Source: Planctomycetota bacterium (GTDB lineage Bacteria; Planctomycetota; B143-G9). Taken from it: DNA of 64,000 nucleotides. The stretch covers positions 28,046 through 92,045 of the forward strand of contig JAXHMW010000001.1 of NCBI GenBank assembly GCA_034521065.1. Reading direction: 5' to 3'. Made by a program: the position numbers and the translations under genes. The notes under the pieces were generated by a model. That model had not been told where the DNA came from. It searched no databases and worked only from the letters and a program-made list of their open reading frames with translations. This document shows positions 7,805-62,600 of the stretch, piece by piece (within the stretch, counting starts at the first letter, position 1; each line of letters begins with the position of its first letter).

Positions 7805-8241
7805 ACGACCGATACCTAAACCATGAGCCGGGCAGGGAACGTAATATGGCAACTGATGACATTCTCACCAGGGCTGAGTGGACCGAGCGCGTTGTCGCCG
7901 TCGCGAACAACGTCATTGATGAGAACGAAGACCTATTTACGGAAAAAAAGGACAAGTCGTTCTTCGAGGACATGGTCCTCGACAGGGTCGAAGCCTACCT
8001 GAAAGGTTCGGCCGTACTTCACGCTGCACGCTATGAGTTCGTGAAGTACTGCGTTGGCGCAGAACATACCACAAGACCTGTGGAAGAAGAATGCAAGGGA
8101 CTGGAACGCTGTGCTGTACGGCGTTTCGTATCATTGCGCCTGTTTCGACGTTACAAAGATGGTTATGAAGATACTGTCGGACGAGGCTCCGAGACGCAAG
8201 AACCCCGTCTCACTGGACGAATGACGGAAAGGCCCCGATGA
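7798..8241 (+). CDS. Hypothetical protein (probable true start ATG at 7846)
   Basis: Intact ORF with no recognisable motif. It ends four nucleotides after the start of the next gene. Confidence 0.4.
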   Translation: MLNDRYLNHEPGRERNMATDDILTRAEWTERVVAVANNVIDENEDLFTEKKDKSFFEDMVLDRVEAYLKGSAVLHAARYEFVKYCVGAEHTTRPVEEECKGLERCAVRRFVSLRLFRRYKDGYEDTVGRGSETQEPRLTGRMTERPR

Positions 8242-11200
8242 AGACAATCGATGAGTTGGCGATCGAAAAAACGCTGAACGGTGAAGCGGAAGCCTTCGCC
8301 GACATCGTCATGCGTCACCGAATGGCGGTTATGCGCCTTTGTCTTTTTGCCTGCGGCGAATACGAAACCGCGAGCCGCATGCTCCGTCGCACTTTCCTCG
8401 CCTTCGCAAACCACATGGTCTCGCATCGCAATCAGGGCGACGTACACAACCTGCTCATAAACCACGCCGCACAGGTCATAAGCAGTTGGGAGAAGCGCGG
8501 CTCAAGACGTGTCGGTAAAATAGAAAATCTGAGAAACAACCTCGAACAGGCCTTCTACTTCCCTTCAGAAGAGCTTGAAAGGCTCAAGAACACCTCGATG
8601 GCTGAGTTGCAGAAGAGCTTTGTCAACGTCGCGGTGGCACTGGGCAAGTATCCCGTGCACCAGAAGCTCGTCATGGGCCTGAAGGCTTTCGAGGGTCGCT
8701 CGTACAACAACATCGCCAAGCTTTCCGGCATTGATCCGAAAAAGATACAGACCATAGTCGAGGACTTCCGCAAGTCCATTCTCGGCGGTTATAAGACAGA
8801 TGACGATGAAGAAGCCGAACTGGAGCAGATGCTTGGGCTTTTCGTTGACAACGAGCTTGCTCCCATCAAGGCCGCGCGTTTGCAGGAAGAGCTTAAGCAA
8901 AATGACCGTTTGCGCAAGCGCATGTCGGAGTTCATCCAGCTTCGCGACAGGCTGACGAGCGCGTTTGCGTACTTCGCCCCTCCCGACGACATCGTCGAGC
9001 AGATTATCAAGGGGATGCCCGACCCCAAGCGACTGCTCTCCGTCCCCCGCTTCGGTGAGATTGCCACGGCAATGGGCTTCGTCGAGCAGGAGGCCATCGA
9101 GGCAGCCCTGAAGGAGCAAAGGAAGCTCAAGGCCCGGGGGCACGATGAGCTTCTGGGTTCCATACTCGTTGAACGGGGCAGCATGGACAAAAAGACCGTT
9201 CAGCGTGTTCTGGAGGTGCAGGGAGAACAGGGCAAGCCTGAAACCCTTGCGGACTGCGAAATAGTGGAGCAGGTGGGCAAGGGCGGCATGGGTGTCGTGT
9301 ATCGCGCTCATCAGCAGAGCATGGGCAGAGATGTCGCAGTCAAGGTGCTGTATCCCAAGCTGGCGAAGGACGAGAAGTTCGTCGAGAGCTTCCTCACAGA
9401 GGGCAAAGCGGTTGCGCACCTTGCACACCCGAACGTGGTCACGGGTATTGATGTCGGAGAGCACCAGGGCTTCATCTACCTGATAATGGAGTTCGTGGAC
9501 GGCCCGACCCTGCGCGAATGGCTCGGGGAGCACGAGGTGATGGACGAGTCCACCGCCCTCGACATGGCCATCCAGGTCTCCGCCGCTCTCGACTACGCTT
9601 ACAAGAACAACTTCATTCACCGCGACATTAAGCCCGACAACATCATGCTCGACCGCAACGGCGTGGCGAAGGTCTGCGACCTCGGTCTCGCCATTAGTGG
9701 CGAACAGGACCTCTTCGACGAGGACGGCGTTGTGGGCACCCCGCACTACCTTTCACCGGAACAGGCCCGGGGAGAGCGCAATCTTGATACTCGCTCGGAT
9801 ATCTATTCCTTCGGCGCAACCCTCTACCACGTCTTGACCGGCTCGACACCCTATTCCGGCGAGGATTCGCGCGAGATCATGGAAAAACATGCTTTCAGCG
9901 ATATACAGCCTCCGAGCGAGCGCAATCCGGATATCTCAGAGGCGTTCGAGTCCATCATCATGAAGATGATGGCCCGTGACCGTGACCTGCGCTATCCCAC
10001 CCCCGGCGATTTGCAGCGCGACCTCGAACTGCTCAAGGCAGGCAAGCGCCCCGTGGCCTATCAGGAGAAGCTGATACTTGAAGGCAAGCTCGATCCCAAG
10101 ATGCTTTTCCATGCAGACCGCACTCCGCAGCTGGTAATCGGCATCGTGGCTTTCCTCGTAATAACCCTGACAGGCATGTACTTCCTGTTCCAGGAATCCA
10201 TCATGCCGCAACAAGAGACCACTTCCTCGTACACTCCGCCTCCCACTCCCACTCCGACGGTACTCAGAAGCGGCGAGTTCTTCGTGCCGTCAATCTCGCC
10301 CGAGCAGGCGAAGGCCGATTACGAGAAACTCGAACAGATGGCAGAGGCCTCAGAAGACCCCTATCAGCTCGCCATAGCATGCGGCACGTTCATTGAGAAG
10401 TATCCGGGAACCAAGTTCATTCAGAAGGTCCTGGAGTTACGCATAGAGGCGTTCAACGCTCACAACAAGCTGGTAGAGGCAGAAATCGAGAAACGCTTCA
10501 AGAAGGCCAAAGAATTGGTCACGCATGAAGAGTATGTCGCAGCACTGAATCACATGTACGGCCTGCCGGAACACATGCGAGCCTCTCCTGCATTCAATAA
10601 GGTAAAGGACAAGATAGACGAGATAAACATAGCCATCGAGGACGTTGTTTTCGAGGAAGTTGACGTTTCCCTCGAGCTTGCAGGTCAGGAAGAATTCACA
10701 GAGGCGACGGACAAACTGAAAGAGCTTATCAACAAGGTTCCACCCGAATACGTACAGCAGATCAGCAACACACTCGTCCGCATCGAGAAGGAAAAGTACT
10801 TCTATGTCATCAGCCTCGGCAAGAACGCGCTGACGAAGATTCTTTCGTATTTCATCGAGGGCGAGTTCGACCAAGCCGACAAGCTCGTGAAAAAGCTGAC
10901 TACCGACCCCGCTTTCGCCGAATTCGCGCCGATGATTGAACAGAGCAAGAATTTCTTCTCCTCGATTCGCTCTGTGATAGAACACGCGATGAAAAGAGCG
11001 AAGGAACTGGAGGGCGGTACGGTAATCCTTCGCCTCGATAACGGTTCAGAGGTTCAGTCCCGCATTCTGAAGGTGAATGACGATAGCACGCTGGATGTCA
11101 TATTTATGGCCGCGGGAGAGAAAAAGACCCTTTCCATTTCCGACCTGTCCTCTTATTGCATCGCGGATCTTGCAAGAAGTTCAATAAGTAACCTGCCTGC

Positions 11201-12569
11201 CGACAAGAAGGGAGAGCAGTACCTGTCGCTTGCAGTTTACGAGTTCCTGACAGGCCTCTTCGAGCTGGCGGACAAGGACATAGAACATGCCCGAAAGTTC
11301 AAAGCCGATCCCACCATTTACGGCATTCTTAAGAACAATTTCGGTGATGTGGTGAAGGAGCGATTCGCGTTGAAGACACTGCAGCGCCTGCGCACCGCCC
11401 GCAAGAACGAGGACTGGGAAGCCGTGGAGAGACTCGCCAAGGAGCTTTTGGGCAAGTTCTCTGCCACAAATGCCGTTTTGCCATATCTTGATACCATAAG
11501 GCTCGCAAGGTCGCAAGCCTCCCTCAATTTGACCGGAATCAAGCGGTTTTTCAACGCTCCCGTTTCCATGGACGCCAGGGGGCTGACGCAGTTCACCTAT
11601 GACCTTTCCAACAAGCACCAGATGAAGGATTTCGGTTACATGCCCGAAAAGTGGTCACTCGAAAACGGCAAGATTGTGCAAAGCGAGGACTTCGGCCTCG
11701 GCTACGGTCTGCATCATCCTGCCTTCTTCAAGGACCGATGCGAAGTGGAGTTCACCTACTCCAACGAAAAGTCCAACTCGCTTTTCGTGTACATGTGCGG
11801 GGTGTGGATCGGCCTCAACGCCCATAACTCCACCGCAGACGCTCTGAACGAGCTGCCGCGTGACAAGACCTACAAGGCGTTTTACGGCAACGACATCGAG
11901 TTCGGAATGGTTGCAGGCGATACCTACCGCATGCGCTACGTGGTCCGTGACGGAAAGGTTTCCGTGTTCGCGAACGACAAGCTCGTTTTCGAGAAGCACG
12001 TTACTACGAAAGCCTCAGGCGTTGAGATCCGCGATCTCGGTTTCGCTCAGATCTCCGAACTCGTAATCCGTGGCAAGATTGACGAGCAGTGGCTCGCAAC
12101 AATTGCAGAACTGAACGCCAGGATAGAGGCGGGAGAACTTACCCGCGGCCTCACCCGCATAGCCTACGGAACGCTGAATTTCTCGCGCAGACTCGGAGAC
12201 GAGGTAGTAAGCGAAGTTAACGATCATTTCGCGGTCGGGCCTTCCAAGCGTCTGCGCAAGCCGACTTGGTCCGCGAAGTACAAGGGATTCCTCATGGTTC
12301 CCGAACGCGGCGAGTACAAGCTTTATATCCGAACTACCGCCCGGACCTCTGTTCGTGTGAACGGAAAACGCGTTCACGACAACACGAGCACAGGCGGCGT
12401 GCCGGACAGCTTCCTCACCATCACCTTGCAGCTCGAAGCAGGGCTTAACGAGTTCGAGTTCTCCGTCGCCAACGACGACATTCCGGATCAGACCATCTGG
12501 CTCGGTTTCGGCTTTGAGACCGACTCCAAGGGCTCGCTCCCGCCAATCATGCTCTACACCGAACCTTAG
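8238..12569 (+). CDS. Giant multidomain signalling protein: N-terminal ECF-type sigma factor domain (sigma2 + sigma4 HTH), a T2SE_N-like helical domain (GspE N-terminal-like), a Ser/Thr protein kinase, one transmembrane helix, and a large extracytoplasmic region ending in a PA14-like domain
   Basis: The N-terminus LAIEKTLNGEAEAFADIVMRHRMAVMRLC...VHNLLINHAAQVI matches the ECF sigma2 pattern. HQKLVMGLKAFEGRSYNNIAKLSGIDPKKIQTIVEDFRKSI matches the sigma4 helix-turn-helix. Kinase motifs are GKGGMGVVYRA, VAVK, HRDIKPDNIML, DLGLA and GTPHYLSPEQ. The transmembrane helix is LVIGIVAFLVITLTGMYFLF. The C-terminal GFLMVPERGEYKLYIRTTARTSVRVNGKRVHDN...LQLEAGLNEFEFSV is PA14-like. The ORF is 1443 aa with no frameshift. 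Confidence 0.8.
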   Translation: MKTIDELAIEKTLNGEAEAFADIVMRHRMAVMRLCLFACGEYETASRMLRRTFLAFANHMVSHRNQGDVHNLLINHAAQVISSWEKRGSRRVGKIENLRNNLEQAFYFPSEELERLKNTSMAELQKSFVNVAVALGKYPVHQKLVMGLKAFEGRSYNNIAKLSGIDPKKIQTIVEDFRKSILGGYKTDDDEEAELEQMLGLFVDNELAPIKAARLQEELKQNDRLRKRMSEFIQLRDRLTSAFAYFAPPDDIVEQIIKGMPDPKRLLSVPRFGEIATAMGFVEQEAIEAALKEQRKLKARGHDELLGSILVERGSMDKKTVQRVLEVQGEQGKPETLADCEIVEQVGKGGMGVVYRAHQQSMGRDVAVKVLYPKLAKDEKFVESFLTEGKAVAHLAHPNVVTGIDVGEHQGFIYLIMEFVDGPTLREWLGEHEVMDESTALDMAIQVSAALDYAYKNNFIHRDIKPDNIMLDRNGVAKVCDLGLAISGEQDLFDEDGVVGTPHYLSPEQARGERNLDTRSDIYSFGATLYHVLTGSTPYSGEDSREIMEKHAFSDIQPPSERNPDISEAFESIIMKMMARDRDLRYPTPGDLQRDLELLKAGKRPVAYQEKLILEGKLDPKMLFHADRTPQLVIGIVAFLVITLTGMYFLFQESIMPQQETTSSYTPPPTPTPTVLRSGEFFVPSISPEQAKADYEKLEQMAEASEDPYQLAIACGTFIEKYPGTKFIQKVLELRIEAFNAHNKLVEAEIEKRFKKAKELVTHEEYVAALNHMYGLPEHMRASPAFNKVKDKIDEINIAIEDVVFEEVDVSLELAGQEEFTEATDKLKELINKVPPEYVQQISNTLVRIEKEKYFYVISLGKNALTKILSYFIEGEFDQADKLVKKLTTDPAFAEFAPMIEQSKNFFSSIRSVIEHAMKRAKELEGGTVILRLDNGSEVQSRILKVNDDSTLDVIFMAAGEKKTLSISDLSSYCIADLARSSISNLPADKKGEQYLSLAVYEFLTGLFELADKDIEHARKFKADPTIYGILKNNFGDVVKERFALKTLQRLRTARKNEDWEAVERLAKELLGKFSATNAVLPYLDTIRLARSQASLNLTGIKRFFNAPVSMDARGLTQFTYDLSNKHQMKDFGYMPEKWSLENGKIVQSEDFGLGYGLHHPAFFKDRCEVEFTYSNEKSNSLFVYMCGVWIGLNAHNSTADALNELPRDKTYKAFYGNDIEFGMVAGDTYRMRYVVRDGKVSVFANDKLVFEKHVTTKASGVEIRDLGFAQISELVIRGKIDEQWLATIAELNARIEAGELTRGLTRIAYGTLNFSRRLGDEVVSEVNDHFAVGPSKRLRKPTWSAKYKGFLMVPERGEYKLYIRTTARTSVRVNGKRVHDNTSTGGVPDSFLTITLQLEAGLNEFEFSVANDDIPDQTIWLGFGFETDSKGSLPPIMLYTEP

Positions 12570-12577
12570 GGGCGGGT

Positions 12578-12653
12578 TGCATAATACAGTCTTACTGCAA
12601 ACGGCTGCGGCTTTACCTCGCTCGTTTTCGTACGAAATTATTTTTTCGAGATA
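12578..12653 (-). repeat. Intergenic repeat element, copy 3 (compact, inverted orientation), flanked by a 16-bp direct duplication ccttaggggcgggttg (12562-12577 and 12655-12670)
   Basis: Its reverse complement reads ctcgaaaaaataatttcgtacgaaaacgagcgaggtaaagccgcagccgtttgcagtaagactgtattatg. The flanking 16-mer is duplicated exactly and includes the stop codon of the 1443-aa gene. Confidence 0.55.
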
Positions 12654-12795
12654 CCCTTAGGGGCGGGTTGAATGCGGTTCGCGGCGGGTTCTCAAAACTC
12701 AAGAAATTCTGAACGGGGTTCTCCCTTCTCCGAACGGCCTGCGCGGTTCCCTTTTGCGTGGTACAATATCTTAAAAATCATCAGGGAGGATAACT

Positions 12796-19604: not shown

Positions 19605-19780
19605 AAAAACTGCTTTCGCACGAAAACGAGCGAGGTCAACTCAGGCGAGGCAGCCAAGTTAAATTATGTTGATGGTGGCTGGCGGCCGTTATCGCAGGTA
19701 TCCCTCGTTCTCTGACCGTTCAACGACAATCAGGTAAGCATGGCAAACCCGCGGACGTTTGCAGTAAAACTGTATTTAAG
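19605..19780 (+). repeat. Intergenic repeat element, copy 2 (longest; between the UDPGP gene and the RCC1 gene)
   Basis: cctcgaaaaaactgctttcgcacgaaaacgagcgaggtcaactcaggcgagg ... taagcatggcaaacccgcggacgtttgcagtaaaactgtattt. Confidence 0.55.
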
Positions 19781-19851: not shown

Positions 19852-22800
19852 ATGCGAAAGTCGGTCTTGATTGTTTCGGTGATTGCGGTTGTTGTGGTTC
19901 TCGCGCTTTCGCTGAACCTCGGCGGTTTAAGGGACATGCTTTCCGGCGGCGCGGGCGAAACGGTTATAGAGCGTTCGCGCACAAGCGGAACGCGCAGCTA
20001 CGAGACAGACGCGACGGCGCAGCAAAGCAGGATTTCGGCAGGGCGGAAACACACTCTTTGCCTGGATAAATACGGCTCGCTCTGGGCGTGGGGCGATAAC
20101 GGTTGGGGCCAGATCGGCAAGGGAGAGGAAGACAGCAAAGAACTTCTGCCTGTTCCCATACGTAAACCAGAAGATATGGGGAATGTCCTCGCCATCTCCG
20201 CCGGAAGTTTTCACAACGTTGTCCTTTGTGAAGATGGCTCGCTCTGGGCGTGGGGCCGGAACATGTACGGCCAGATCGGAAACGGTAAGGGCGGAGAGCA
20301 GGAAAGCAAAGAGCCTCTGCCTGTTCCCGTGCGTAAACCGGAAGGCATGGGAAATGTCGTCGCGATCTCTGCCGGAGATGAGCACAGCCTTGCCCTTTGT
20401 GAAGACGGCTTCTCTGGGCGTGGGGCTCGAACGAATTCGGCCAGATCGGGAACGGTAAGGGCGGAGAAAAGGACAGCAAAGTGCTTTTGCCTGTCCGCGT
20501 GAGTAAACCCGAAGGCATGGGGAATGTCGTCTCCATCTCCGCCGGAGGTTCTCACAATCTTGCCCTTTGTGAAGACGGCTCGCTCTGGGCGTGGGGCTGG
20601 AACGAGTACGGCCAGATCGGCAACGGCAAGGGCGGAGAGACGGGTAGCAAAGAGCTTCTGCCTGTCCGCGTGCGTGAGCCGGTACGCATGGGGAATGTCC
20701 TCGCGATCTCCGCCGGAGGTTGGCACAGCTTTGCCCTCTGTGAAGACGGCTCGCTCTGGGCGTGGGGGTACAACAGGTATGGCCAGATCGGCAACGGTAA
20801 GGGCGGAAAGTGGGACAGCGGAGGAAAGCTTCTGCCTGTTCCCGTGCGTAAACCTGAAGGCATGGGTAATGTCGTCTCTATCTCCGCCGGATTTTGGCAC
20901 AACCTAGCCCTTTGTGAAGGCGGCTCGCTCTGGGCGTGGGGCGATAACGAGTACGGCCAGATCGGCAACGGCAAGGGCGGAGAGCAGGACAGCGAAGAAC
21001 TTCTGCCTGCCTTCGTGTTGCCACACGCGGGCATGGGGAATGTAGTCGCCATATCCGCCGGAGGTTTGCACAGCTTTGCCCTTTGTGAAGACGGCTCGCT
21101 CTGGGCGTGGGGCGATAACGAGTACGACCAGATCGGCAACGGCAAGGGCGGTTGGACGGACAGCAAAGAGCTTCTGCCTGTTCCCGTGCGTAAACACGAA
21201 GGCATGGGGAATGTCCTCACAATCTCCGCCGGAAGTGATCACAACCTCGCCCTTTGCGAAGACGGCTCGCTCTGGGCGTGGGGGGGCAACTCGTCCGGCC
21301 AGGTCGGCAACGGCAAGGGCGGAGAGGAAGACAGCAAAGAGCTCTCTGCCTGTGCGCGTGAGTAAACCGGAAGGCATGGGGAATGTCGTCGCCATCTCCG
21401 CCGGAGGTTGGCACAACCTCGCCCTTTGTGAAGACGGCTCGCTCTGGGCGTGGGGGAACAACTGGTTCGGCCAGGTCGGCAACGGCAAGGGCGGAGAAAA
21501 GGACAGCAAAGAACTTCTGCCTGTCCGAGTGCGTAAACCGGAAGGCATGGGATGTCGTAGCCATCTCCCGGAGGTTTGCACAGCCTTGCCCTTTGCGAAG
21601 ACGGCTCGCTCTGGGCGTGGGGCTGGAACAAGGTCGGCCAGATCGGCAACGGCAAGGGCGGAGAGCAGGACAGCAAAGAGCTTCTGCCTGTTCGCGTGTG
21701 GCAACACGAAGGCTTGGGGGATATTGTCGCCATCTCCGCCGGATTTAAGTACAACCTTGCCCTTTGTGAAGACGGCTCGCTCTGGACGTGGGGTGAAAAC
21801 TATTTCGGCCAGATCGGCAACGGTAAGGGCGAAGAGGTGTACAGCAAAGAGCCTCTGCCTGTCCGCGTGAGTAAACCGGAAGGTATGGGGAATGTCCTCG
21901 CCATCTCCACTGGATGGTTTCACAACCTTGCCCTTTGTGAAGACGGCTCGCTCTGGGCGTGGGGGAACAACTCGTCCGGCCAGATCGGCAACGGCAAGGG
22001 CGGAGAGGAAGACAGCAAAGAGCTTCTGCCTGTCCGCGTGCGTAAACCGGAAGGCATGGGAGATGTGCTCGCCATATCCGCCGGAGCTGCTCACAACCTT
22101 GCCCTTTGTGAAGACGGCTCGCTCTGGGCGTGGGGAACAACTCGTCCGGCCAGATCGGCAACGCAAAGGGCGGAGAGGTGTCAGCAGAGAACTTCTGCCT
22201 GTCCGTGTGCGTAAACCGAAAGGTATGGGGAATATTGTCACCATATCCGCCGGAGCTTTGCACAACCTTGCCCTTTGCGAAGACGGCTCGCTCTGGGCGT
22301 GGGGTTATAACGCTTCCGGCCAGATCGGCAACGGCAAGGGCGGAGAGGAAGACAGCGAAGAGCTTCTGCCCGTGCGCGTGAGTAAACCGTAAGGTATGGG
22401 TGATGTCCTCCCCATCTCCGCCGGAGCTTTGCACAACCTTGCCCTTTGCGAAGACGGCTCGCTCTGGGACTTGGGGGGGACAGAGTACGGCCAGATCGGG
22501 GAACGGTAAGAAACGCAGGCGAAGAGCTTCTGCCTGTTCCCGTGCGTAAACCCGAAGATATGGGGAATGTCGCCGCGACTTCCGCCGGAGGTGTTCACAA
22601 CCTTGCCCTTTGTGAAGACGGCTCGCTCTGGGCGTGGGGCTGGAACGATTACGGCCAGATCGGGAACGGTAAGGGTGGAAAGGAGTACAGCAAAGAGCCT
22701 CTGCCTGTCCGAGTGAGTAAACCAGAAGATATGGGGAATGTCCTTGCCATCTCCGCCGGAGGTACTCACAACCTTGCCCTTTGTGAAGACGGCTCGCTCT

Positions 22801-23078
22801 GGGCGTGGGGCGAGAACGATGATGGCCAGATCGGCAACGGTAAGGGTGGAGAAAAGGACAGCAAAGAACTTCTGCCTGTCCGCGTATGGAAACCGCAAGG
22901 CATGGGGAATGTCGTCGCGTTCTCCGCCGGAGGTGCTCACAACCTTGCCCTTTGTGAAGACGGCTCGCTCTGGGCGTGGGGCTGGAACAAGTACGGCCAG
23001 ATCGGGAACGGTAAGGGTGGAAAAAAAGGCAGCAAAGAGCTTTTGCCTGTCCGCGTGCGTAAACCTGAAGGTATGTAA
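19852..23078 (+). pseudogene. Membrane-anchored RCC1-repeat (beta-propeller) protein encoded by ~19 tandem ~170-nt repeat units. The reading frame is broken many times by indels and at least one in-frame stop, so it is either a pseudogene or a repeat-collapse/indel-error hotspot
   Basis: N-terminal anchor MRKSVLIVSVIAVVVVLALSL with a GGAGGG ribosome-binding site. The unit ...GSLWAWGxNxYGQIGNGKGGExDSKELLPVPVRKPEGMGNVVAISAGxxHNLALCEDG... recurs every ~170 nt from ~20060 to ~23080. Frame breaks occur near 20400, 21350, 21550, 22130, 22385 (an in-frame TAA from a G-to-T change in the otherwise conserved aaaccgGaagg), 22450-22510 and 23070. Confidence 0.7.
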
Positions 23079-23080
23079 GA
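20050..23080. repeat. Tandem array of ~19 direct repeats (~170 bp, RCC1-coding units, roughly 80-95% identical)
   Basis: The string tgtgaagacggctcgctctgggcgtgggg recurs at ~20228, 20399, 20569, 20739, 20909, 21075, 21247, 21426, 21592, 21766, 21937, 22108, 22277, 22448, 22612, 22783 and 22954. Confidence 0.9.
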
Positions 23081-23225
23081 TGTTGTAGCCATCTCCGCCG
23101 GAAAATCGCAACACGAATCAGTGCAGCCAGTGCGCCCCGCGAGCCTTTACGAACGTGCTTGTCTCGAAAGAAGTTACGAACAGCAGAGATATAGCAGGCA
23201 TACGGGAAAACCAGCGATAGCGGCC

Positions 23226-23390
23226 GCCAGCCACCATCAGCACGATTTAGCTTGGGTGCCGAGCCTCGGCGTGCCGCACGGGCAAGATTAAACCAGGCAA
23301 GCGGGGGATTTCTGTGATAACGCTTGCCGACCATCATCAGCAAGATTTAACCTGGGTGCCGAGCCTCGGCGTGCCGCACGGGCAGGTTGA
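23226..23390. repeat. Two ~58-bp imperfect direct repeats (accatcagcaMgatttaRcYtgggtgccgagcctcggcgtgccgcacgggcaRgtt) separated by an 8-bp-stem hairpin
   Basis: Copies at 23226-23290 and 23332-23390. Between them lies ggcaagcg-N17-cgcttgcc. The pair sits between the end of the RCC1 array and the ACR3 gene. Confidence 0.6.
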
Positions 23391-41130: not shown

Positions 41131-42521
<1,391 letters not shown>

Positions 42522-45559: not shown

Positions 45560-46350
45560 GTTTTGCTCCTTCGATAAACGCTTTGCCGCGGAATACCGGG
45601 CCGTCCTTGCAGGCTCGCGCCATTTTAAGCCGGCCGTTGACCATAAGCGGAACCGTGCAACCGAAGCAGGCTCCTATCCCGCATGCCATGCGCTCTTCCG
45701 TGGCGACAAGGCTTTCGGTCTCGTTTTCGAGTGCCATTTCCGCCACGGCTTTCAACATTCCGTCGGGGCCGCAAGCGGCTACGATGTCCACGCCGCCCTC
45801 ACCCAGCATACGTTCGAGGGGCCCTGTTACGATACCTGTCTCGCCGTCGGATCCGTCTTCTGTTGTGACGACTACCTCGCGGCAGTGTTCACGTATCCTG
45901 TCCAAGTGTACTAAATCCTGTTTCGTCCCTGCACCGCAGATGAAGCGAGCAGGACGTCCCTGGGCGTTAAGTTGTTTCGCGAGCAGTACAAGTTCCGCCG
46001 CACCGACTCCGCCTCCGACCAGCAGGATATCCTCGTATGAGCGGGAGACCGTGAAGCCGTTGCCCAGCGGTCCCACGACGTCTATGTCCATTCCCTCGTG
46101 GAAGGTTGCCCCGAGCCATCTGTCGTGTTCCGCCCCCTACCACCGCCGCGACGAACTCCACCCAGCCCTCGCTGCAGTCACTTACACAGAAGGGACGCCC
46201 TAACAGGCGTTCACCGTCCTCTGCCACGTGCACCATGAAAAACTGCCCCGGAACGAGTTGGCCGCACCAGTCGGCATCGAACCGGCAAAGCATGTATCTG
46301 CCCTGCAGTTCGAACGAAACTATCCTGTAGCTTTGCCTCGTCTTTCTCAT
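45537..46350 (-). CDS. PyrK-like oxidoreductase FAD/NAD(P)-binding subunit with a C-terminal 2Fe-2S cluster, with an apparent frameshift near 46090-46130
   Basis: RIVSFELQGRYMLCRFD...GQFFMVHV (FAD-binding). LLVGGGVGAAELVLLAK (NAD-binding). MACGIGACFGC iron-sulfur motif. No pyrD lies adjacent. Confidence 0.65.
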
Positions 46351-47949: not shown

Positions 47950-48709
47950 TTATGGCCTGTCACGCCTGCCTGTGAGCACGCAGGCGGTGTCGAACTCCAG
48001 CGCAACGAGACAAACGTCCGCAAAGCCCGCTCCTTCGAAAGCCTTCCGTATCTCATCGCGGTCCGTCATGGCAAGAATGCTTTCGGCGAGATACCGGTAA
48101 TCGCTCGCCTTAGCGAACGGACTGACCAGCGCCGGTACTATCCTCCGCAGCCAGAGGCTCATCAGGGGCCTCATCATGCTACGTGAACGTGGCGCGAAAG
48201 TATCCAAAAGCATAACCCTGCCACCGGGTTTCAGAACCCGATACATCTCGCTTACAGCCTTCTTGCGGTCGCTGAGATTGCGGTACACGAAGCAGCTTGT
48301 AACCACGTCGAATGAGCTGTCTCCGAACGGCATGTCCGTGGCGTCCGCCTTCAATATGTTCGCGCCGGGCACTTTTTTCCGGGCAATGTCCAGCATGGTC
48401 TCGGAAATGTCAATGCCGGTGCAGCTTACGTCCGGTCGCTTCGCGGCAAGAAAGGCCGGCAGCAATCCCGCAGCCCGTTCCCACATCCAGCAGCCTGGCG
48501 TCCCGGGGGATTTTCAGCAGCCGGAGGGCCTTGACCCTCCACCGGGTGGTAGCTCCAAGCGATATGATATCGTTCATGCGGTCATATCGAGGGGCGACCC
48601 TGTCGAACAGACTGCTCACAAACGCGGTCTTGCGCGAACCGTTTAAGTTCGCGGCTTCCAGGGGAGTTACCCCGTCGGCTTTCTCGCTTACGCGATCTCG
48701 TTTACCCAT
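47950..48709 (-). CDS. ubiE: Demethylmenaquinone/ubiquinone C-methyltransferase (UbiE/MenG), with an apparent frameshift near 48420-48490
   Basis: VSSLFDRVAPRYDRMNDIISLG...LDVGTGCG. C-terminal ...VLKPGGRVMLLD in another frame. Confidence 0.75.
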
Positions 48710-48950
48710 CGCGTTAGATTCTTTACTGCCTTGTTCAGACTGTAGTACACGCTGTGGGGAGTTGTCTGCTCGAACGCATCGCCGTACTTAGGGATAAAAG
48801 GTAACGTAAGTCCAAACACCGGTTTCTGAACTGTCAACCTGTCGGGCTACTGGCAAGCTCGAATACCCCAACTGCCTACTACTCTCCGTGAGTTATCTTA
48901 TCAGGACAGAGATCGCAATTGTATTTGACGAAAAGATGTTGTGCTGATGT

Positions 48951-49518
48951 TCAGGCAGAACAGGTAAATTGCCTTCGACATTGGCATACCAGCATGTTGT
49001 TTGGTTTCCCCAACCTGAAGGCCTCCAACGGGATGATGTCAGGCCATGGCGAATCGCCAAGAAACTCAGAGCGATTGGTGAAGTTGTATTTGAGAGCAAC
49101 ATACTCATATGCTTTATCTATTCGTCTCATCGCTCTGAAATGCGAACTGTCTCCTTCCCTGTATATTGGCAAATGATAGCTCGTATCTCGGATGGATCTC
49201 AGTCGGTGCCCGGAATTGGAGATCGTTCTTGGTTGGGCCATCTACTATTATGCTATAGCCCCAAAACACTTCACAATTTGAGACTTCCATGAGACGGCCA
49301 AGTGACACAAGCGAAATGGTGGAGTATGATACATCCACGGTTCCAACGGAGGCTTTCCCAAGGAATCTTGCAATGACTGTGAAGTTGCTACCGGTCAAAT
49401 CCGAGTTCATTACTCTAATCTCTGAGAGCTGGTTTCTTGTTAAAAGTGCTTCCGTAGACGGGACAAAGGAACAATTCCAGAGCCGTAACCGCGTGTTCTC
49501 ACCTGAAGTAGAACACAA
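48951..49518 (-). CDS. Hypothetical protein A of the low-GC island (probably with a frameshift near 49130-49240; start near the IS-end copy)
   Basis: ORF 49114..49518, plus overlapping ORF 48951..49241 whose translation (DKAYEYVALKYNFTNRSEFLGDSPWPDIIPLEAF) reads as protein. Immediately upstream lies a perfect ribosome-binding site and ATG inside the IS-end copy (GAGGTGGCCTGATG at ~49545). Confidence 0.35.
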
Positions 49519-49545
49519 AACATCCTCGCCAACATCAGGCCACCT

Positions 49546-49608
49546 CGAAAAATTGGCGCATCCACGACCTGAGTATACAATGGAGGGACTTAAAGTCAGC
49601 CGAAAAAC
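49546..49608 (-). mobile_element. Solo copy of the IS5-family terminal inverted repeat with its adjacent ~45 bp (same as 51906-51970)
   Basis: ggccacctcgaaaaattggcgcatccacgacctgagtatacaatgga matches ggccacctcgaaaaatcggcgtatccacaacctgagtatacaatgga at 51906. It contains an outward-facing TTGACT-16-TATACT promoter-like pair and a GAGGTG Shine-Dalgarno sequence. Confidence 0.5.
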
Positions 49609-49929
49609 TGCGTCTCTTTCTTCTCGTTATCTTCTTCCTTGCTTGGCTCGCGAGCCCCATTGTAGCAGGAGATTCCTCCCCCTTAACCATCTGTCCAGTT
49701 TTTGGGGACAAGCTCACTTCTTACAGGACACAGCGGTAAAAAACTGTTGAGAAAACTACTATACACCTCTCTTCAGGTCAGTCCCTTCTGATAACCGTAG
49801 CGCAGTGTGCACTTCCCCACCTAAACCTGTTTTCAAGCTTGCGACTCATGAAGACTCTCTTTGCGTTCAGTACGCGCACATCGAACTCTTTCGCGAATTT
49901 TGTATACACAGTACAGTTCTCGGGAACAT

Positions 49930-51276
49930 TTAGGTTGATTCTGATCTCCACCTTTCTCCTATCGGGCGTTCTGCAGCTTTTGTGTAGCCGAAAGCAGCAT
50001 AGAAGCTGAGGCGACGCAGTTCGGGCATGCTCTTACTCACCCAAGAGAAAAGCTCAGAGGCATCCGGAGCATCTTGCTCCGTAAGACAGGGCGCCATGAC
50101 AAACTCGCGAATACCGGGATATGAACCATCTTTAAGACACTTCACAATACCGTCATCAAACGACCCGGATATCCTCACTCTCGACGCACTTGCGAGAAGT
50201 TTCTTGCTCAACTCCCTCGCTCTCTCTCCGGTGAACTGCAAGTTGTGACAATGCAGCCACTCGAGTTGGTTGTCGCCAATCTCAAAGACAGCATCCGGTG
50301 TTGACTCAATATCCAGATTATAGAGGCCCAGAGACTCACAGCAGTTCAGAAGAGTACAGAGCTCTTCTGCAGAGACCGTGATCCTCTTGTCTGAAGATCC
50401 GACGAGGTGAACTTTCTTTATCTTCCCGGATTCTTCTACATCGTCCTCGAACTCAAGGTCGAGCATGCCGGGCTCCCCTTCTTTCGCGTCGCTGCTGATC
50501 CGTAGCTCTTCTATCGGCCACTTCCGTAATGTCGGAACATGAACAGTTGACGGAGAGTAGCAGTAATCGAGATACAGGACTCTCACCTGTTGTTGCGAAT
50601 ACGCAATTTTCTCAAGAGCCTTGGGCGAAAGCGCTGTTCTAACGGCAAAAGTCACTTCCAGTTTGTTCTTTGCTTGCTCGAAGTCCGTGGCCGACATCGG
50701 GTCAAGCAGACACGTTGTATGTTCCTCGACCCTGTGCCAATCAATAGCACCTGTCGCAACCAGAGGTCGGTAAACCCACTTGCTCTCGCGCAACCATCTC
50801 GAATCGGGAAAAACACCGCTCAGCGAGGAGGAGGGTATCGCTATCACCACACCTTTAACGGTTGCTTTCTTCGCTATCTTCAAAATGCTGCGATCTCGTT
50901 CTTCATCCTTTCTAACTTCTGGCCACTTTGTGTCTGAACCGACTGTAACATAAGGGATTTCTCTGTCTTCCAGAACGCCTGCAATAGTGTCTGGGTCCAA
51001 TGACATAATGCACTGGCATTTGTCACCTGCGAAGAACACAGAATAGCCTTCGTACTTCTCGATGCGCAGGTCGAGCCCCGCCGCTGCGGAGTAGTCGAAC
51101 AAATATGTATGTTCATCAACATCGACGAATGTGCACAGATCTTCGTCCTGAAGAGCAGAAAGCTTTAGCAGTTGCCCACTTTCCTGAACGTTCGACAAGT
51201 ATGCTGCCAAACGAACAGTCTGCAAAGCCCTGAGCTCCTCTCTCACCAAAGCAGTCACTTGCGAAGAGCACTGCAA
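49930..51276 (-). CDS. Hypothetical protein B of the low-GC island (448 aa), with a C-terminal ribonuclease-inhibitor-like leucine-rich repeat region
   Basis: A long intact ORF in ~45% GC DNA. C-terminal LxxLxLxxNxI/F-type repeats (LYNLDIESTPDAVFEIGDNQLEWLHCHNLQFTGERARELSKKLLASASRVRISGSFDDGIVKCL). The N-terminal ~250 aa has no recognisable motif. Confidence 0.5.
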   Translation of the reverse strand: MQCSSQVTALVREELRALQTVRLAAYLSNVQESGQLLKLSALQDEDLCTFVDVDEHTYLFDYSAAAGLDLRIEKYEGYSVFFAGDKCQCIMSLDPDTIAGVLEDREIPYVTVGSDTKWPEVRKDEERDRSILKIAKKATVKGVVIAIPSSSLSGVFPDSRWLRESKWVYRPLVATGAIDWHRVEEHTTCLLDPMSATDFEQAKNKLEVTFAVRTALSPKALEKIAYSQQQVRVLYLDYCYSPSTVHVPTLRKWPIEELRISSDAKEGEPGMLDLEFEDDVEESGKIKKVHLVGSSDKRITVSAEELCTLLNCCESLGLYNLDIESTPDAVFEIGDNQLEWLHCHNLQFTGERARELSKKLLASASRVRISGSFDDGIVKCLKDGSYPGIREFVMAPCLTEQDAPDASELFSWVSKSMPELRRLSFYAAFGYTKAAERPIGERWRSEST

Positions 51277-51323
51277 TACACATTAGAACACAAAAAACGG
51301 AGTTTGCTTTCAAAACAGACCTC

Positions 51324-51935
51324 CTACGGTGCATCACGATCATTTGGTATTGGATCGTGCGCCTTTACTTCTACATAATCTTGCATTTGTGAAGCCTGCG
51401 GTTCACTATTCTCAGTCAGAAGGTAAGTATCATTTTTCTCTGAGTAACCCACAATACAATCTACGTTCGTGCCAGTGTAATCACTTGTTACCGTAAGCTC
51501 GTTCTTGTCAATTATCGGCGTTTTCTCTCTGCTGTTTTCGATATACCTAGTGTATACTCCTCCGATTTGAAAGGTGTTTGCCCAATCGACCGTCCTGCCG
51601 TCCTCATTCCATGTTGTCTTATATGCAGTGTATCTTGCCCATATCTTTGTGCAACGTATAAACGTACCACACTTTGGCCCATGTTCATTCTCATCTCTTT
51701 GCCCAATGTAGGAATCGCTAAGCTGGACTTCTTTGTTTCCTTGTATCCAACGCCGCAACGGGCCATTGTAGTCACACATGTGTATGCGATATCTAATGGT
51801 CTTTCTGAGCCCGTTTTTAGACGGGCCATTTCCACTTCCTGCATCTGTCAGTTCCCAGTCATTTCCCTCAATGGTATTCTTCTCTCTGCTAAAAAGCTCT
51901 CTTGTGGCCACCTCGAAAAATCGGCGTATCCACAA
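51324..51935 (-). CDS. Hypothetical protein C of the low-GC island (203 aa as called; the 5' end lies inside the IS terminal repeat, so the real start is uncertain or the gene is truncated by IS insertion; first ATG at 51779)
   Basis: Intact ORF, Trp/Tyr/Asn-rich, no recognisable motif. The ORF-finder start is a TTG inside the IS left inverted repeat. Confidence 0.4.
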   Translation of the reverse strand: MWIRRFFEVATRELFSREKNTIEGNDWELTDAGSGNGPSKNGLRKTIRYRIHMCDYNGPLRRWIQGNKEVQLSDSYIGQRDENEHGPKCGTFIRCTKIWARYTAYKTTWNEDGRTVDWANTFQIGGVYTRYIENSREKTPIIDKNELTVTSDYTGTNVDCIVGYSEKNDTYLLTENSEPQASQMQDYVEVKAHDPIPNDRDAP

Positions 51936-52443
51936 CCTGAGTATACAATGGATGGAGGATAAGTCAACCGAAGAGAGGCAATAATTGTTGAGGGTTTTTA
52001 AGTTAACATCGACGTAGAAAACGTGCTTGCCAGGCTCGATAAGAAGGGCGATATTCTTGCGAAGCTGAACGAGGTCATTGACTGGGAGGATTTTTGTCCG
52101 ATCCTAAGCCGCATTCGCAAGGCAGATCGCAAGAACACGTGTTCGGGATTCAGAGATGACCGCGGGAAACCTTCTGCTGAGGTGCGTCGGGCTGGACAGG
52201 GCGCGGGCGAAGATCGGCCTTCGAAACCTCGCCCACAACATGAGGAGATTCGTAACTCTTCTGAAAGAACGACCTTGCACTGTTTAAGTCTGCCCTGAGT
52301 ACGGGAAATAGAGTCAAAATGCGTGCAAAACGGACGCAAATAGCCGAAAAGAGCGCGAATTCGGACAGTTTTCAGGCTAATAATCGCTCCCTGACCAATA
52401 ATTACGCACCGGAGGCAAAATCTGCGCTTTTTCTGACAGAATT
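51906..52443 (+). mobile_element. Degenerate IS5-family insertion-sequence remnant (~540 bp) with terminal inverted repeats (GGCCACCTCGAAMAAT) and an internally deleted transposase gene
   Basis: Left end ggccacctcgaaaaatcgg (51906-). Right end is the reverse complement, ggtattgttcgaggtggcc (-52443). The internal ORF 52023..52287 encodes MLARLDKKGDILAKLNEVIDWEDFCPILSRIRKADRKNT (IS5/IS1182 DUF772-like N-terminus) fused out of frame to ...GLDRARAKIGLRNLAHNMRRFVTLLKER (the conserved IS5-family C-terminal tail). Confidence 0.65.
52023..52287 (+). pseudogene. IS5-family transposase remnant (N-terminal ~45 aa + C-terminal ~40 aa; DDE catalytic core deleted)
   Basis: See the mobile-element entry above; the two halves lie in different frames. 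Confidence 0.6.
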
Positions 52444-52570
52444 GGGTATTGTTCGAGGTGGCCTTACGCAAGCGTTTCCCTTTCTCAAAGCACCCGGTTG
52501 CTTCCAAACATTTGCCCTCAACGGAAAACGAATACAATCTCTGGCCATTCGATGACAAGTGGGCCTATAG

Positions 52571-52646
52571 CTCAATCGGCAGAGCAGCGGACTCATAATC
52601 CGCGTGTTCCTGGTTCGAGTCCAGGTGGGCCCACCAGTTTTAAGCG
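52571..52646 (+). tRNA. tRNA-Met (anticodon CAU; elongator-like anticodon stem, could also be tRNA-Ile2 by lysidine modification), 76 nt with CCA
   Basis: GGGCCTA acceptor stem. Anticodon stem-loop GCGGA-CTCATAA-TCCGC. T-arm CCTGG-TTCGAGT-CCAGG. Discriminator A, then CCA. Confidence 0.85.
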
Positions 52647-52651
52647 GGTTT

Positions 52652-52695
52652 CAGCTTGACGGCTGAGACCCGCTTTCCTTTTGGGGAACAATTAG
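52652..52695 (+). terminator. Rho-independent terminator after tRNA-Met
   Basis: aagcgggtttcagc-ttgacg-gctgagacccgctt followed by TCCTTTTGGGG. Confidence 0.65.
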
Positions 52696-53011
52696 GAAAA
52701 CAATACGGTTAACTCCGTCTTCCTTTGGCCGCAGCCTCCTGATGAGTACCTGAACAGCTCTCCACCCGCGCCTCTCATGCGTGCCGCCTCTTACCGTCCA
52801 TGACAAGTTCATTTAAGGCCCGCAAGCGTCCGGAGTCTGTATTCCGCTATTTTTCGGCCGGTACAAAGAAGCGCAGGTTTTCGGCATCATTCTTTTCATT
52901 TCCTTCGTCCCACTCCACATCACGTGGATATCACTCGCCCCCGATTTCAGAGAACGGTATAATTACTTCAAGCGCTCCTTGCTCGTTCGCCTCGGTATCA
53001 GGAATACGCCC

Positions 53012-54951: not shown

Positions 54952-54975
54952 CTCAGCGATACCGAAGACGACAAA

Positions 54976-55010
54976 AGCCCCCGCCATTGCGCGGGGGGGC
55001 TTTTCTGTTT
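54976..55010 (+). terminator. Rho-independent terminator after bfr (gcccccgc-cattg-cgcggggggc + TTTTCTGTTT)
   Basis: GC-rich 8-9-bp stem plus T-tract. The same ~45-nt sequence recurs at 55619-55660. Confidence 0.75.
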
Positions 55011-55602: not shown

Positions 55603-55628
55603 GCTCAACATGTAACCATGACGACAAA

Positions 55629-55660
55629 AGCCCCCGCCATTGCGCGGGGGCTTTTATTTT
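55629..55660 (+). terminator. Rho-independent terminator (duplicate of the bfr terminator, including the 12 nt 5' of the stem)
   Basis: gacgacaaaagcccccgccattgcgcgggggcttttatttt. Confidence 0.75.
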
Positions 55661-59699: not shown

Positions 59700-62600
59700 G
59701 GCTTCGCTCGCTCTCCGTTCTTCCTGCACACCAGGAACTCCGTGCTGTTGCTGGTCGCCGCTCTGCTGCTGGGCTTCTTCGCTGTTGTCAATACTCCCCG
59801 AGAGGAAGAGCCCCAGATCGTCGTGCCCATGGCGGACGTGTTTCGTCCTCCGTTCCGGGAAGTTCGCCTTCCGGAATCGGAAAGACCGTTGCCACCCCGC
59901 TTGAAAAAGTTGTTGTGGCAGATAGACGGAGTGGAATACGTGTATTCCACCTCCTATCGGGACTTCGCGGTGGTTACCGTCCGTTACTACGTCGGCGAGG
60001 ACCGCGAGGACTCGCTTGTAAAGCTGTACAACAAGCTCAACTCGAACGCCGACGAAGTTCCGCCATCGGTTGCCAATTGGGTGGTAAAACCGATCGCGGT
60101 GGACGACGTTCCCATCGTCAACCTGACACTCTTCTCTGAACGCTACGATGACCACGAGCTGTACCGGATGGGCGAGGAGATGCTCGCGCGGCTCAACTCG
60201 GTCGAGAAGATTTCTAAAACCGGAATACGCGGCGGGCGCAAACGCGAAGTTCGGGTCGAACTGGATGCCGAAAGCTGCGCGGCCATGAACATATCTCCTC
60301 TGCAGGTCGTTCGGACAATCGGCGCGGCCGACTCTTCTCTGTCCGCAGGCAAGATAGAGCAGGGCAACGTGGAGAGTGCGGTCGTCACTGGCCCACTGAT
60401 TATGACCGCCCAAGACGTGCGCGAGATAGTTGTGGGAGTCTATAAGGGCAGGCCGGTTTACATCCGCGATGTAGCGAAGGTCATTGACGGCCCGGAGGAA
60501 CGCTCAACCTACACCCGCTTTGGCTGGGGACCTGCAAGCGGGATCTCGCAAGAGGAGCGGAGTAGCTCCCACAGTTCCGTCACCCTCTGGTTTGCCAAGC
60601 AAAAAGGCTCAAACGCAGTCGACGTGTCGGAAGAGATTATCCATCGCGCAGACATTCTGAAGGCCGAGATGCTCCCGCCAGACGTACACATGCAGCTCAC
60701 GCGCGACTACGGAGAGAGCGCGAACGAGAAGGTGAACGAACTGCTGCTCGAACTCGCTATCGCCATCATCACCGTTGTAATACTCATCGGGTTCGGCCTG
60801 GGCTGGAGGGAGGCTCTGGTCGTCGCGCTGGCCATTCCGGTCAGCTTCTCGCTGGCACTGTTCTCCTCGTACCTGCTGGGATATACGATCAACCGACGCT
60901 GTTCGCCTTGGTGCTTTCGCTCGGAATTGTGGTGGACGACCCGATTGTCAACGTGGATAACATCCAGCGGCATCTCATGTTGCGCAAGAAGGACTTTCCC
61001 GCCCGAAAGGCCGCCGTCATCGGCGTCAAAGAGATATTCATGCCGGTGCTCGGTGCAACTCTGGCCATCATAGTCTCATTCCTGCCAATGTTCTTTATCT
61101 CCGGCATGATGGGGCCGTACATGGCTCCCATGGCCGCGAACGTGCCGCTGGATGACATTCCTGCTGCTCCTGTTCGGTCACCATCGCGCCCTGGCTCGCG
61201 TTCATGCTGCTCAAGAACCACGTTAAGCCCGAACAGAACGAAGATACCGGCGGTACTTCTGGCTTCATATACAATTCCTATCGAAAGATACTGAATCCCT
61301 TCCTCGAACGAAAGTCCCTGCGCTGGATACTCATGGGAAGCGTGGCGGCCTTGTTGGTTGTCTCGTTCGGGCTCGCGTTCGTGGCGGTGCCACTCAAAAT
61401 CCTGCCCTTCGACAACAAAAACGAGTTCCAGATCGTCGTCAACATGCCAGAGAACACAACCCTCGAGACCACCGACGACGTCGTGCGCTCCTTCGAGCGT
61501 TACCTTGCCAACATGCCCGAGGTCCGGGACTACCAGTCCTACGTCGGAACCAATTCGCCGATGGACTTCAACGGAATGGTTCGACATTACTATCTGCGCG
61601 AGGGAAGCAACGTCGCCGATATTCGCATCAACCTGGCCCACAAGAAGAAGCGCGTCCAACAGAGCCACTCTATCATTCTGCGTATTAGAGACGACCTACA
61701 GCAAATCGCCGACCAAAACGGCGCACGAATTCAGGTCGTCGAGGCGCCGCTGGAACTTTTCGCCAGTTCGACTATCAGCGGCGAAGGCAGACGGCGTAGC
61801 CCGATAATACTGAGCACCAAACTCGTGGCCGGTGCTAAGACCGTCATGAAGGCCATGGAGGCCGAGAAAGACGTTGTTGACATAGACTTGAGCGCAGAGG
61901 CCGAGCGCGAGCGTTTCGAGTTCGTCGTTGACAAGGAGAAGGCAGCTCTTCACGGCATCACGACCGAGCAGGTGGTCAACACGCTTTACACCGCTATTTC
62001 GGGCTCGAGCGCATCCGGCGCTCACATGCCACATGCAGCAGGTAACCCTTGGGTACGTGCGGTCATAACCCGGGCGATGCTTGAGCCTTGAAGAACTCGG
62101 CCGAATAGCCATGCATGGAGCGGACGGTTCCATGATGCACCTGTCCGATATCGGCAATTTCGTCAGCAAAGCCGTTGAGCAGCCGATATATCACAAGAAC
62201 CTCAAGCCGGTTGTGTACGTGTTCGCCGAGATGGCGGGACGTTCGCCGGTAGATGCCATATTCGGATTAAAGGGACGTGTGAACGAAGAGGACGGGTACA
62301 TGCTGCCCGAAGGCGTGACAACCTACTGGCAGGGCGAAGGCGAGTGGCAGATAACCGTGGATGTGTTCCGTGACCTCGGATTGGCCTTTGCGATTGCCAT
62401 GCTGGGCATCTACATCATCCTGGTGTTCGAGATAAAGAGCTTCCGCATGCCGCTTGTCATCATGGCTGCCATACCGCTTACCGCAATCGGCATAATGCCG
62501 GGCTTCGCGGTTCTCAATTTCATCGCGGCCGGAGAGTCGGGAGGGCGCTGACTGAATCACCGCTACCGCCATGATAGGGATGATTGCCCTCGGTGGGATA

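Follow-up and report, generated by a model that had tools for sequence, protein, structure and literature searches.

Orphan reading frames and IS5-family remnants in a low-GC islet between ubiE and tRNA-Met of a Planctomycetota genome

Introduction

What does a short stretch of low guanine-plus-cytosine (GC) content represent when it lies among core genes and encodes proteins of no recognisable family: a working accessory system, or the remains of mobile DNA? We asked this question of positions 48720-52560 (about 3.8-3.85 kb) in a window of 64,000 nucleotides, the whole stretch of DNA analysed here, which comes from a Planctomycetota metagenome-assembled genome (MAG; assembly GCA_034521065.1, contig JAXHMW010000001.1, positions 28,046 to 92,045). 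This islet lies between the ubiE gene and the transfer RNA (tRNA) gene tRNA-Met(CAT), and contains three open reading frames (ORFs) on the minus strand, called ORF1, ORF2 and ORF3 here, together with the ends of insertion sequences (ISs). The initial annotation had taken the three ORFs for a horizontally acquired accessory system, in which a leucine-rich-repeat (LRR) protein was accompanied by two small partners and the IS ends might drive their expression. Our results point, with fair probability, to a small foreign islet that has been reshaped and partly destroyed by IS5-family activity, and that now holds one intact orphan gene (ORF2), one truncated orphan ORF (ORF3) and debris. The islet is most likely not a co-adapted three-gene system.

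Foreign base composition of the islet

The GC content of positions 48720-52560 was 0.480, compared to 0.565 in the rest of the window, and it was the minimum among all 3.8-kb windows (mean 0.560, standard deviation 0.021). Sliding-window analysis showed that GC dropped from 0.56-0.60 to 0.44-0.51 at about 48.7-52.5 kb. The GC island described in the initial annotation is real, although the contrast had been given as about 60% to about 45% and was measured as 56.5% to 48%. The GC content at third codon positions (GC3) was 0.45-0.54 in the islet ORFs and about 0.70 in neighbouring host genes. The tetranucleotide comparison with the flanks that had been proposed as a check also set the islet apart: the z-score correlation between the islet and the rest of the window was 0.09, compared to 0.62±0.09 (minimum 0.30) for 105 other non-overlapping windows. 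The composition of the islet is foreign in GC, GC3 and tetranucleotides, which is consistent with the horizontal acquisition that had been claimed.

The left boundary, outside the islet, is a ubiE/menG-type methyltransferase gene on the minus strand (47950-48709; Pfam Ubie_methyltran), and the right boundary is tRNA-Met(CAT) on the plus strand (52561-52636). The two genes diverge, so that the islet occupies a divergent intergenic region on the 5' side of the tRNA gene. Both boundary genes are present as annotated, although ubiE itself is split over two reading frames. No integrase-like ORF was found in the islet, either in the ORF list or by Pfam, and no tRNA-sequence repeat was found at the far islet boundary. 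Because integrase and att repeats are missing and the islet is not on the side of the tRNA gene expected for such elements, a prophage or integrative element was rejected. A direct repeat of 12 nt, with 11 of 12 nt identical, lies at 52549-52560, directly upstream of tRNA-Met, and at 52797-52808, 160 nt downstream of it; this pair is probably due to chance, and the islet does not lie between its copies.

Remnants of IS5-family elements in the islet

A 67-bp direct repeat, 87% identical between its copies, was found at 49538-49604 and 51906-51972, and the likeness between the copies ended after about 70 bp. Its 21-nt core had two matches in the window, compared to 0.02 expected. The second copy opens a 561-bp element on the plus strand (51906-52466), whose terminal inverted repeats, GGCCACCTCGAAAAAT on the left (51906-51921) and GGCCACCTCGAACAAT on the right (52451-52466, as reverse complement), agree at 15 of 16 nt. 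Inside this element, an N-terminal transposase remnant (…LAKLNEVIDWEDFCPILSRI…) and a C-terminal one (…GLRNLAHNMRRFVTLLKE) lie in different frames. Through tblastn, we found that the remnants matched annotated IS5-family transposases (expectation value (E) 1e-2 for the N-terminal piece and 1e-3 for the C-terminal piece), and that 162 plasmid records matched them; a Pfam search with the 91-aa remnant gave no match. The DDE catalytic core is deleted. The 561-bp element was judged to be IS5-derived because of the inverted partner at 52451-52466 and the remnants matching IS5-family transposases. By these sequence features, it is an IS5-family element with an internal deletion, and the other copy of the repeat, at 49538-49604 (plus strand), is a solo left end. 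The repeat pair, the inverted partner and the transposase remnants bear out the IS5-family terminal repeats of the initial annotation, and its observation that two ORFs (ORF1 and ORF3) abut IS5 ends was confirmed as well.

The 21-mer of the IS end was also searched in public genome contigs, and no full-length IS relative was recovered. Matches in two MAG contigs, which can be aligned with each other over the stretch shown, were dismissed as chance; one of them (L002) lies inside a phospholipase-D-like ORF. Elsewhere in the window, a repeated intergenic element described below, with the palindrome TTTCGTACGAAA, has a core, CCTCGAAAAA, which is similar to the IS5-like end found at both 49538 and 51906.

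The arrangement of the ends raises the possibility of a 2.93-kb cargo unit (49538-52466), in which ORF2 and ORF3 would be passengers of an IS5 transposase encoded elsewhere in the genome. Both ORFs lie between inverted ends, and the inverted arms at 49537-49553 and 52448-52464 are 94% complementary over 17 nt. TNA targets are known for some IS5-family groups, and the left flank of the unit (TCA) and its right flank (TTA) resemble them. However, the two flanks differ, so there is no target-site duplication, and an extra internal left end abuts ORF3. Moreover, searches of the window and of public collections gave neither a second copy of the unit nor an intact transposase. We consider such a cargo unit unlikely.

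ORF2 is a real gene without close relatives

ORF2 (49930-51276, minus strand) encodes 448 aa when called mechanically from position 51276, and the deposited protein, U5N86_00390, has 422 aa from a start at 51198. Its open frame of 450 codons was reached in none of 2000 Markov simulations (maximum 315), and its annotated frame was clearly favoured by codon models, with a pattern in which GC at first codon positions (GC1) exceeds GC at second positions (GC2). By length and codon structure, ORF2 is a real gene.

A word-indexed search of 5.8 billion clustered proteins returned only its own record, a hypothetical protein of a Planctomycetota MAG. An exhaustive phmmer search against 1.84 billion representatives added only two weak matches, one of which was dismissed as a low-complexity repeat protein. 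No relatives of ORF2 were found in back-translated scans of metagenome contigs or viral contigs. Exact-sequence look-ups returned no record. For all three ORFs, Pfam, NCBIfam, PADLOC and PHROGs gave no usable family, and the defence models of PADLOC-DB gave no family at E up to 1. The N-terminal 180-200 aa or so of ORF2 have no assignable fold and no detectable relative.

LRR-like features in the C-terminal half of ORF2

The initial annotation had described the C-terminal part of ORF2 as ribonuclease-inhibitor-like LRRs, and several signals agree with it. Through phmmer, residues 259-331 were aligned with a ribonuclease-inhibitor-type LRR protein at E 1.7e-5 and 32% identity. Sequence matches to ORF2 in the Protein Data Bank (PDB) were mostly LRR proteins, at E values below significance: six of seven for the full length (E 0.5-1.9) and eight of eight for the C-terminal half (E 0.12-0.96). 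A single-sequence AlphaFold2 model of ORF2 had a mean predicted local distance difference test (pLDDT) score of 44, and residues 310-400 reached 60-77 with a regular alternation of strand and helix. Eight hxxhxh motifs, spaced by 24-31 aa, were counted in residues 205-394 (P 0.004-0.02 compared to shuffles, with an alphabet chosen post hoc).

Other results weigh against this reading. Pfam reported no family, LRR or other, with E limits of 1 for full-length ORF2 and 10 for its C-terminal half, and NCBIfam gave none for ORF2 either. A Foldseek search of the ORF2 model against the PDB gave no significant match (best E 0.013, with a TM score of about 0.15), and LRR proteins were mixed with TIM barrels among the matches. 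With a repeat hidden Markov model built from the LRR match, ORF2 had a score of 5.2 bits, which the best of 1000 shuffled sequences also reached; this model is over-fitted and uninformative. The strict 11-residue LRR motif has a single match in ORF2. The unit LEWLHCHNL quoted in the initial annotation is one residue short, or out of register, compared to the canonical LxxLxLxxNxL. The asparagine/cysteine position of the LRR core is irregular, leaving about eight degenerate units at most.

The LRR C-terminus is plausible from several weak, concordant signals, although it stays below every curated threshold. The profile search and structure prediction that had been proposed gave no curated profile match and models of low confidence (pLDDT 44 for ORF2 and 29.6 for ORF3). 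Taken together, we think it rather probable that the C-terminal half of ORF2 is an irregular LRR-like solenoid. As the initial annotation had stated, an NTPase domain is absent: no Walker A motif, [AG]xxxxGK[ST], is present in ORF2, and no NTPase match was given by Pfam or PADLOC. The missing Walker A motif excludes an NLR-like architecture. The LRR-like tail is probably a binding scaffold without an enzymatic or NTPase domain.

ORF3 is probably truncated, and ORF1 is doubtful

ORF3 (51324-51935, minus strand) can encode up to 203 aa, and its deposited form (51324-51911, U5N86_00395, hypothetical protein) has 195 aa. The deposited GTG start at 51911 falls within the terminal 6 nt of the IS end, and the mechanical start is also inside the IS end; the open frame continues into the IS without a credible start. 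Because these starts lie in the IS end and none outside the IS is credible, ORF3 was judged to be 5'-truncated, and it is probably an orphan gene cut by an IS5-family insertion. The word-indexed search of the 5.8 billion clustered proteins returned only its own record, and the scan of viral contigs by back-translation gave no relative. The single-sequence AlphaFold2 model of ORF3 was uninformative, and no significant match to the PDB was found.

ORF1 (49114-49518, minus strand; 134 aa from a TTG start) is a doubtful gene and possibly a fragment. Its open frame spans 170 codons, running through the IS end, and its length is within chance, since the mean longest open run in Markov simulations was 142 codons. 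Its codon-frame signal is weak. The stretch beside it, at 48710-49113, is low in GC and contains no recognisable gene, just short ORF fragments of 71 and 96 aa that overlap in different frames. When ORF1 and two overlapping downstream frames were concatenated and used for a word-indexed search of the 5.8 billion proteins, nothing was returned, not even ORF1 itself. We take this as a sign that no protein has been deposited for ORF1, because ORF2 and ORF3, unlike ORF1, matched their own records. A local alignment of ORF1 with the C-terminus of ORF2 gave P of about 0.03-0.07, and paralogy among ORF1, ORF2 and ORF3 was not significant. The three minus-strand ORFs without a family that had been listed initially are present and match no family, although ORF1 is not credible as a gene.

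These observations also bear on the possibility that the entire interval is non-coding or decayed and that none of the ORFs is a gene. The absence of homologues, the flat positional GC in ORF1 and ORF3, and the very low AlphaFold2 confidence for ORF3 and for most of ORF2 would agree with it. However, the length of the ORF2 frame, beyond any simulated one, together with its codon-frame preference and GC1>GC2 pattern, argues against such complete decay, which we regard as extremely improbable.

Promoter-like and Shine-Dalgarno sequences in the IS ends

The initial annotation had also reported an outward-facing promoter in the IS ends. We found TTGACT-N16-TATACT at 51967-51940 on the minus strand, facing outward from the left end of the 561-bp element and agreeing with 10 of 12 consensus positions; the solo end carries CTGACT-N16-TATACT at 49599-49572 on the minus strand, with 9 of 12. 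The reported sequence is present, with this one change in the second copy. Seven promoter-like sites were counted in the region compared to 4.1±2.1 in shuffles, which is no excess. As judged by the consensus hexamers, the outward -35/-10-like pairs may be a possible source of transcription for ORF3 and ORF2, if these are transcribed. The hexamer GAGGTG, reported as a Shine-Dalgarno sequence, occurs in both ends (51914 and 49546, minus strand). In the end next to ORF3, no start codon is suitably spaced from it, and in the end next to ORF1, it is followed 5 nt later by an out-of-frame ATG, from which an ORF of 31 codons begins.

The case for a functional, horizontally acquired three-gene module, with an LRR sensor or adaptor and two small partners driven by IS-end promoters, can be weighed from these data. 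The three ORFs are co-directional and closely spaced, the promoter-like hexamers of both IS ends face them, the LRR signals exist, if weak, and codon-frame signals prefer the annotated frames of all three. However, the initial proposal of an accessory system is not supported, as no ORF has convincing homologues, ORF1 is doubtful, without a deposited protein or a significant length, and ORF3 is 5'-truncated, without a credible start outside the IS. Co-occurrence of the trio in other genomes had been suggested as a check; because no homologues of any ORF were found in the protein searches, the metagenome searches (ORF2) or the viral searches (ORF2 and ORF3), no conserved trio was seen, an outcome that the initial annotation had itself named as refuting its proposal. 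The lack of a PADLOC match, of an NTPase or effector domain and of promoter-like sites above the shuffled count also speaks against such a module, and we regard it as very unlikely.

Frame errors in the assembly and the boundaries of ORF2

Several housekeeping genes of the window are broken between frames. The ubiE gene lies in two frames, with an N-terminal fragment at 48410-48709 (profile positions 5-61) and a C-terminal fragment at 47950-48486 (72-230). The AAA-lid part of an ntrC-like sigma-54 response regulator continues in another frame, the N-terminus of a PyrK-like gene is in another frame, and an AcrB-like gene occupies three frames or more, two of its shifts being no more than about 40 nt apart. 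The breaks lie at window positions 41400-41560, 46080-46200, 48410-48520, 61070-61160 and 62030-62120, roughly one per 2 kb. This density fits an indel-prone consensus better than natural decay or real pseudogenes. Indels of this kind are known from unpolished long-read assemblies (PMC9262707). At about one break per 2 kb in conserved genes, about two frame errors are expected inside the islet, and the frequent frameshifts across the window make the islet ORF boundaries provisional. Because of the frameshifts in housekeeping genes, "orphans" and "truncated genes" in the window, and probably in the whole MAG, are unreliable before polishing.

One such error may lie at the start of ORF2. An AGGAGG sequence (51325-51320), the only one on the minus strand of the islet, is followed after a 6-nt spacer by a TTG (51313) that opens a signal-peptide-like segment, MKANSVFCVLMCIAVLFASDC (51251-51325, minus strand), with a Kyte-Doolittle maximum of 2.61 over 15 residues. 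This segment overlaps the ORF2 start in a different frame. Host genes with clear ATG starts use Shine-Dalgarno sequences of this kind. On these sequence grounds, MKANSVFCVLMCIAVLFASDC may belong at the N-terminus of ORF2, from which a frame error would have shifted it; ORF2 would then be a secreted protein. At the other end, an ORF of 57 codons in another frame (49778-49951, minus strand) begins just before the ORF2 stop and has the best coding score there; that it continues ORF2 after a frameshift is speculative. An ORF2 "repaired" with both the signal peptide and the 49778-49951 extension had repeat statistics that were no better.

With the restored signal peptide, ORF2 could join ORF3 in a two-gene cargo between the inverted IS5 ends at 49538-52466, driven by an IS promoter and encoding a secreted LRR-like binder with a small beta-rich partner. 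We hold this combination to be highly improbable. If true, it would be a previously unseen, lineage-specific, mobile surface-interaction module in Planctomycetota.

The frame errors also bear on whether the islet belongs to this genome. A low-GC segment from another organism or strain could have been joined in an error-prone metagenome assembly, perhaps across IS repeats. The islet's tetranucleotide signature, unrelated to that of the rest of the window, the low-accuracy consensus suggested by the dense frame errors in conserved genes, and the repeated IS ends within the segment are in line with such an artefact. However, both flanks are host-like, the edges of the islet coincide exactly with the ubiE start and the 5' end of the tRNA gene, and two precise chimeric joins would be needed. 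The IS ends are also internal to the low-GC stretch, away from its edges. An assembly artefact of this kind seems quite unlikely to us.

Proposed origin of the islet

The reading that we prefer is the foreign islet reworked by IS5-family elements. Foreign DNA would have been acquired between ubiE and tRNA-Met, in an otherwise core neighbourhood of the MAG, and then altered by IS5-family transposition, deletion and decay. One IS5-family insertion would have cut off the 5' end of ORF3. What would remain of the acquired DNA is ORF2, ORF3, the 561-bp element, the solo 67-bp end and about 0.8 kb of fragmentary ORFs, including ORF1.

Four points weigh against this origin. First, no related genome was retrieved, either with a flanking 488-aa protein against genome contigs or with the DUF1570 protein against metagenome contigs, and insertion into an ancestral empty site therefore lacks support. 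Second, low GC without homologues could also come from a chimeric assembly. Third, the 561-bp element has no target-site duplication, the left flank ending in ...CTTGT (TGT) and the right beginning with TTACG... (TTA). Fourth, a full-length IS copy was not found within the window.

Small islets of low GC content that carry orphan genes together with IS debris are common, no function can be attached to this one, and it matters little as it stands. If ORF2 did encode a secreted LRR-like protein and were mobilised by IS5 ends, the case would illustrate, in a modest way, how Planctomycetota acquire eukaryote-like repeat proteins.

Other features of the window

A terminator-like hairpin (52642-52675) lies 3' of tRNA-Met, and Pfam found DUF1570 in the gene immediately to the right of the tRNA gene. 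The wider neighbours are core genes encoding a histidine kinase, a sigma-54 response regulator, YjeF, a PyrK-like protein, bacterioferritin, HlyD and AcrB. The Rfam scan showed two tRNAs only. After the bacterioferritin gene, a 38-nt repeat, 92% identical between its copies (54960-54997 and 55613-55650) and containing the hairpin AAAAGCCCCCGC...GCGGGGGCTTTT, looks like a reused bidirectional terminator.

A gene for RCC1 repeats at 20030-23226 (Pfam RCC1 and WD40_RLD, E down to 1e-70) is made of a 171-bp unit that recurs in tandem at least 17 times, and its reading frame falls into several segments on both strands. In spite of the frame errors in other parts of the window, an ORF of 1466 codons at 8169-12569 is uninterrupted; it encodes a Ser/Thr protein kinase domain (E 2e-53), and its C-terminal PA14 match is weak and sub-threshold (E 6e-4, 20 bits compared to a cut-off of 24). 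The intergenic element mentioned above, in which the palindrome TTTCGTACGAAA stands between CCTCG...CGAGG, is repeated at 1725-1908, 12565-12659 (inverted), 19605-19776 and 23205-23266 (inverted, partial). The Ser/Thr kinase/PA14 gene (1466 aa) and the gene for the RCC1 repeats are flanked by copies in opposite orientation.

Comparison with known systems

Among known genomic islets, those of foreign composition that carry ORFans and IS remnants are similar to this islet in the lower GC and GC3, the deviant tetranucleotides, the core site next to a tRNA gene, the IS fragments and the genes without homologues. In contrast to them, it has no integrase and no att-type direct repeat, lies 5' and not 3' of the tRNA gene, and is very small (3.85 kb). 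The 561-bp element is similar to the IS5 family and its derivatives that resemble miniature inverted-repeat transposable elements in its inverted repeats with 15 of 16 nt in agreement, its transposase remnants and its outward -35/-10-like pair. It differs from the family in lacking the DDE core and a target duplication, and its promoter is one predicted from hexamers. The activation of adjacent genes by promoters that point outward from IS elements is discussed in PMC5343135.

ORF2 is similar to ribonuclease-inhibitor-type and cysteine-containing (F-box-type) LRR proteins in its predicted beta-strand/helix units of about 24-31 residues and their hxxhxh core, but differs from them in having no Pfam LRR match, an irregular asparagine/cysteine position and an unrelated N-terminal part of about 180-200 residues. 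With the NLR-like or STAND sensors (Avs, bNACHT) it shares just the idea of a C-terminal repeat domain acting as a sensor, and unlike them it has no Walker A motif or NTPase, no PADLOC match and no effector domain. Nothing ties the ORFs of the islet into a system. Such islets are already well known, as are IS5 derivatives and orphan repeat proteins.

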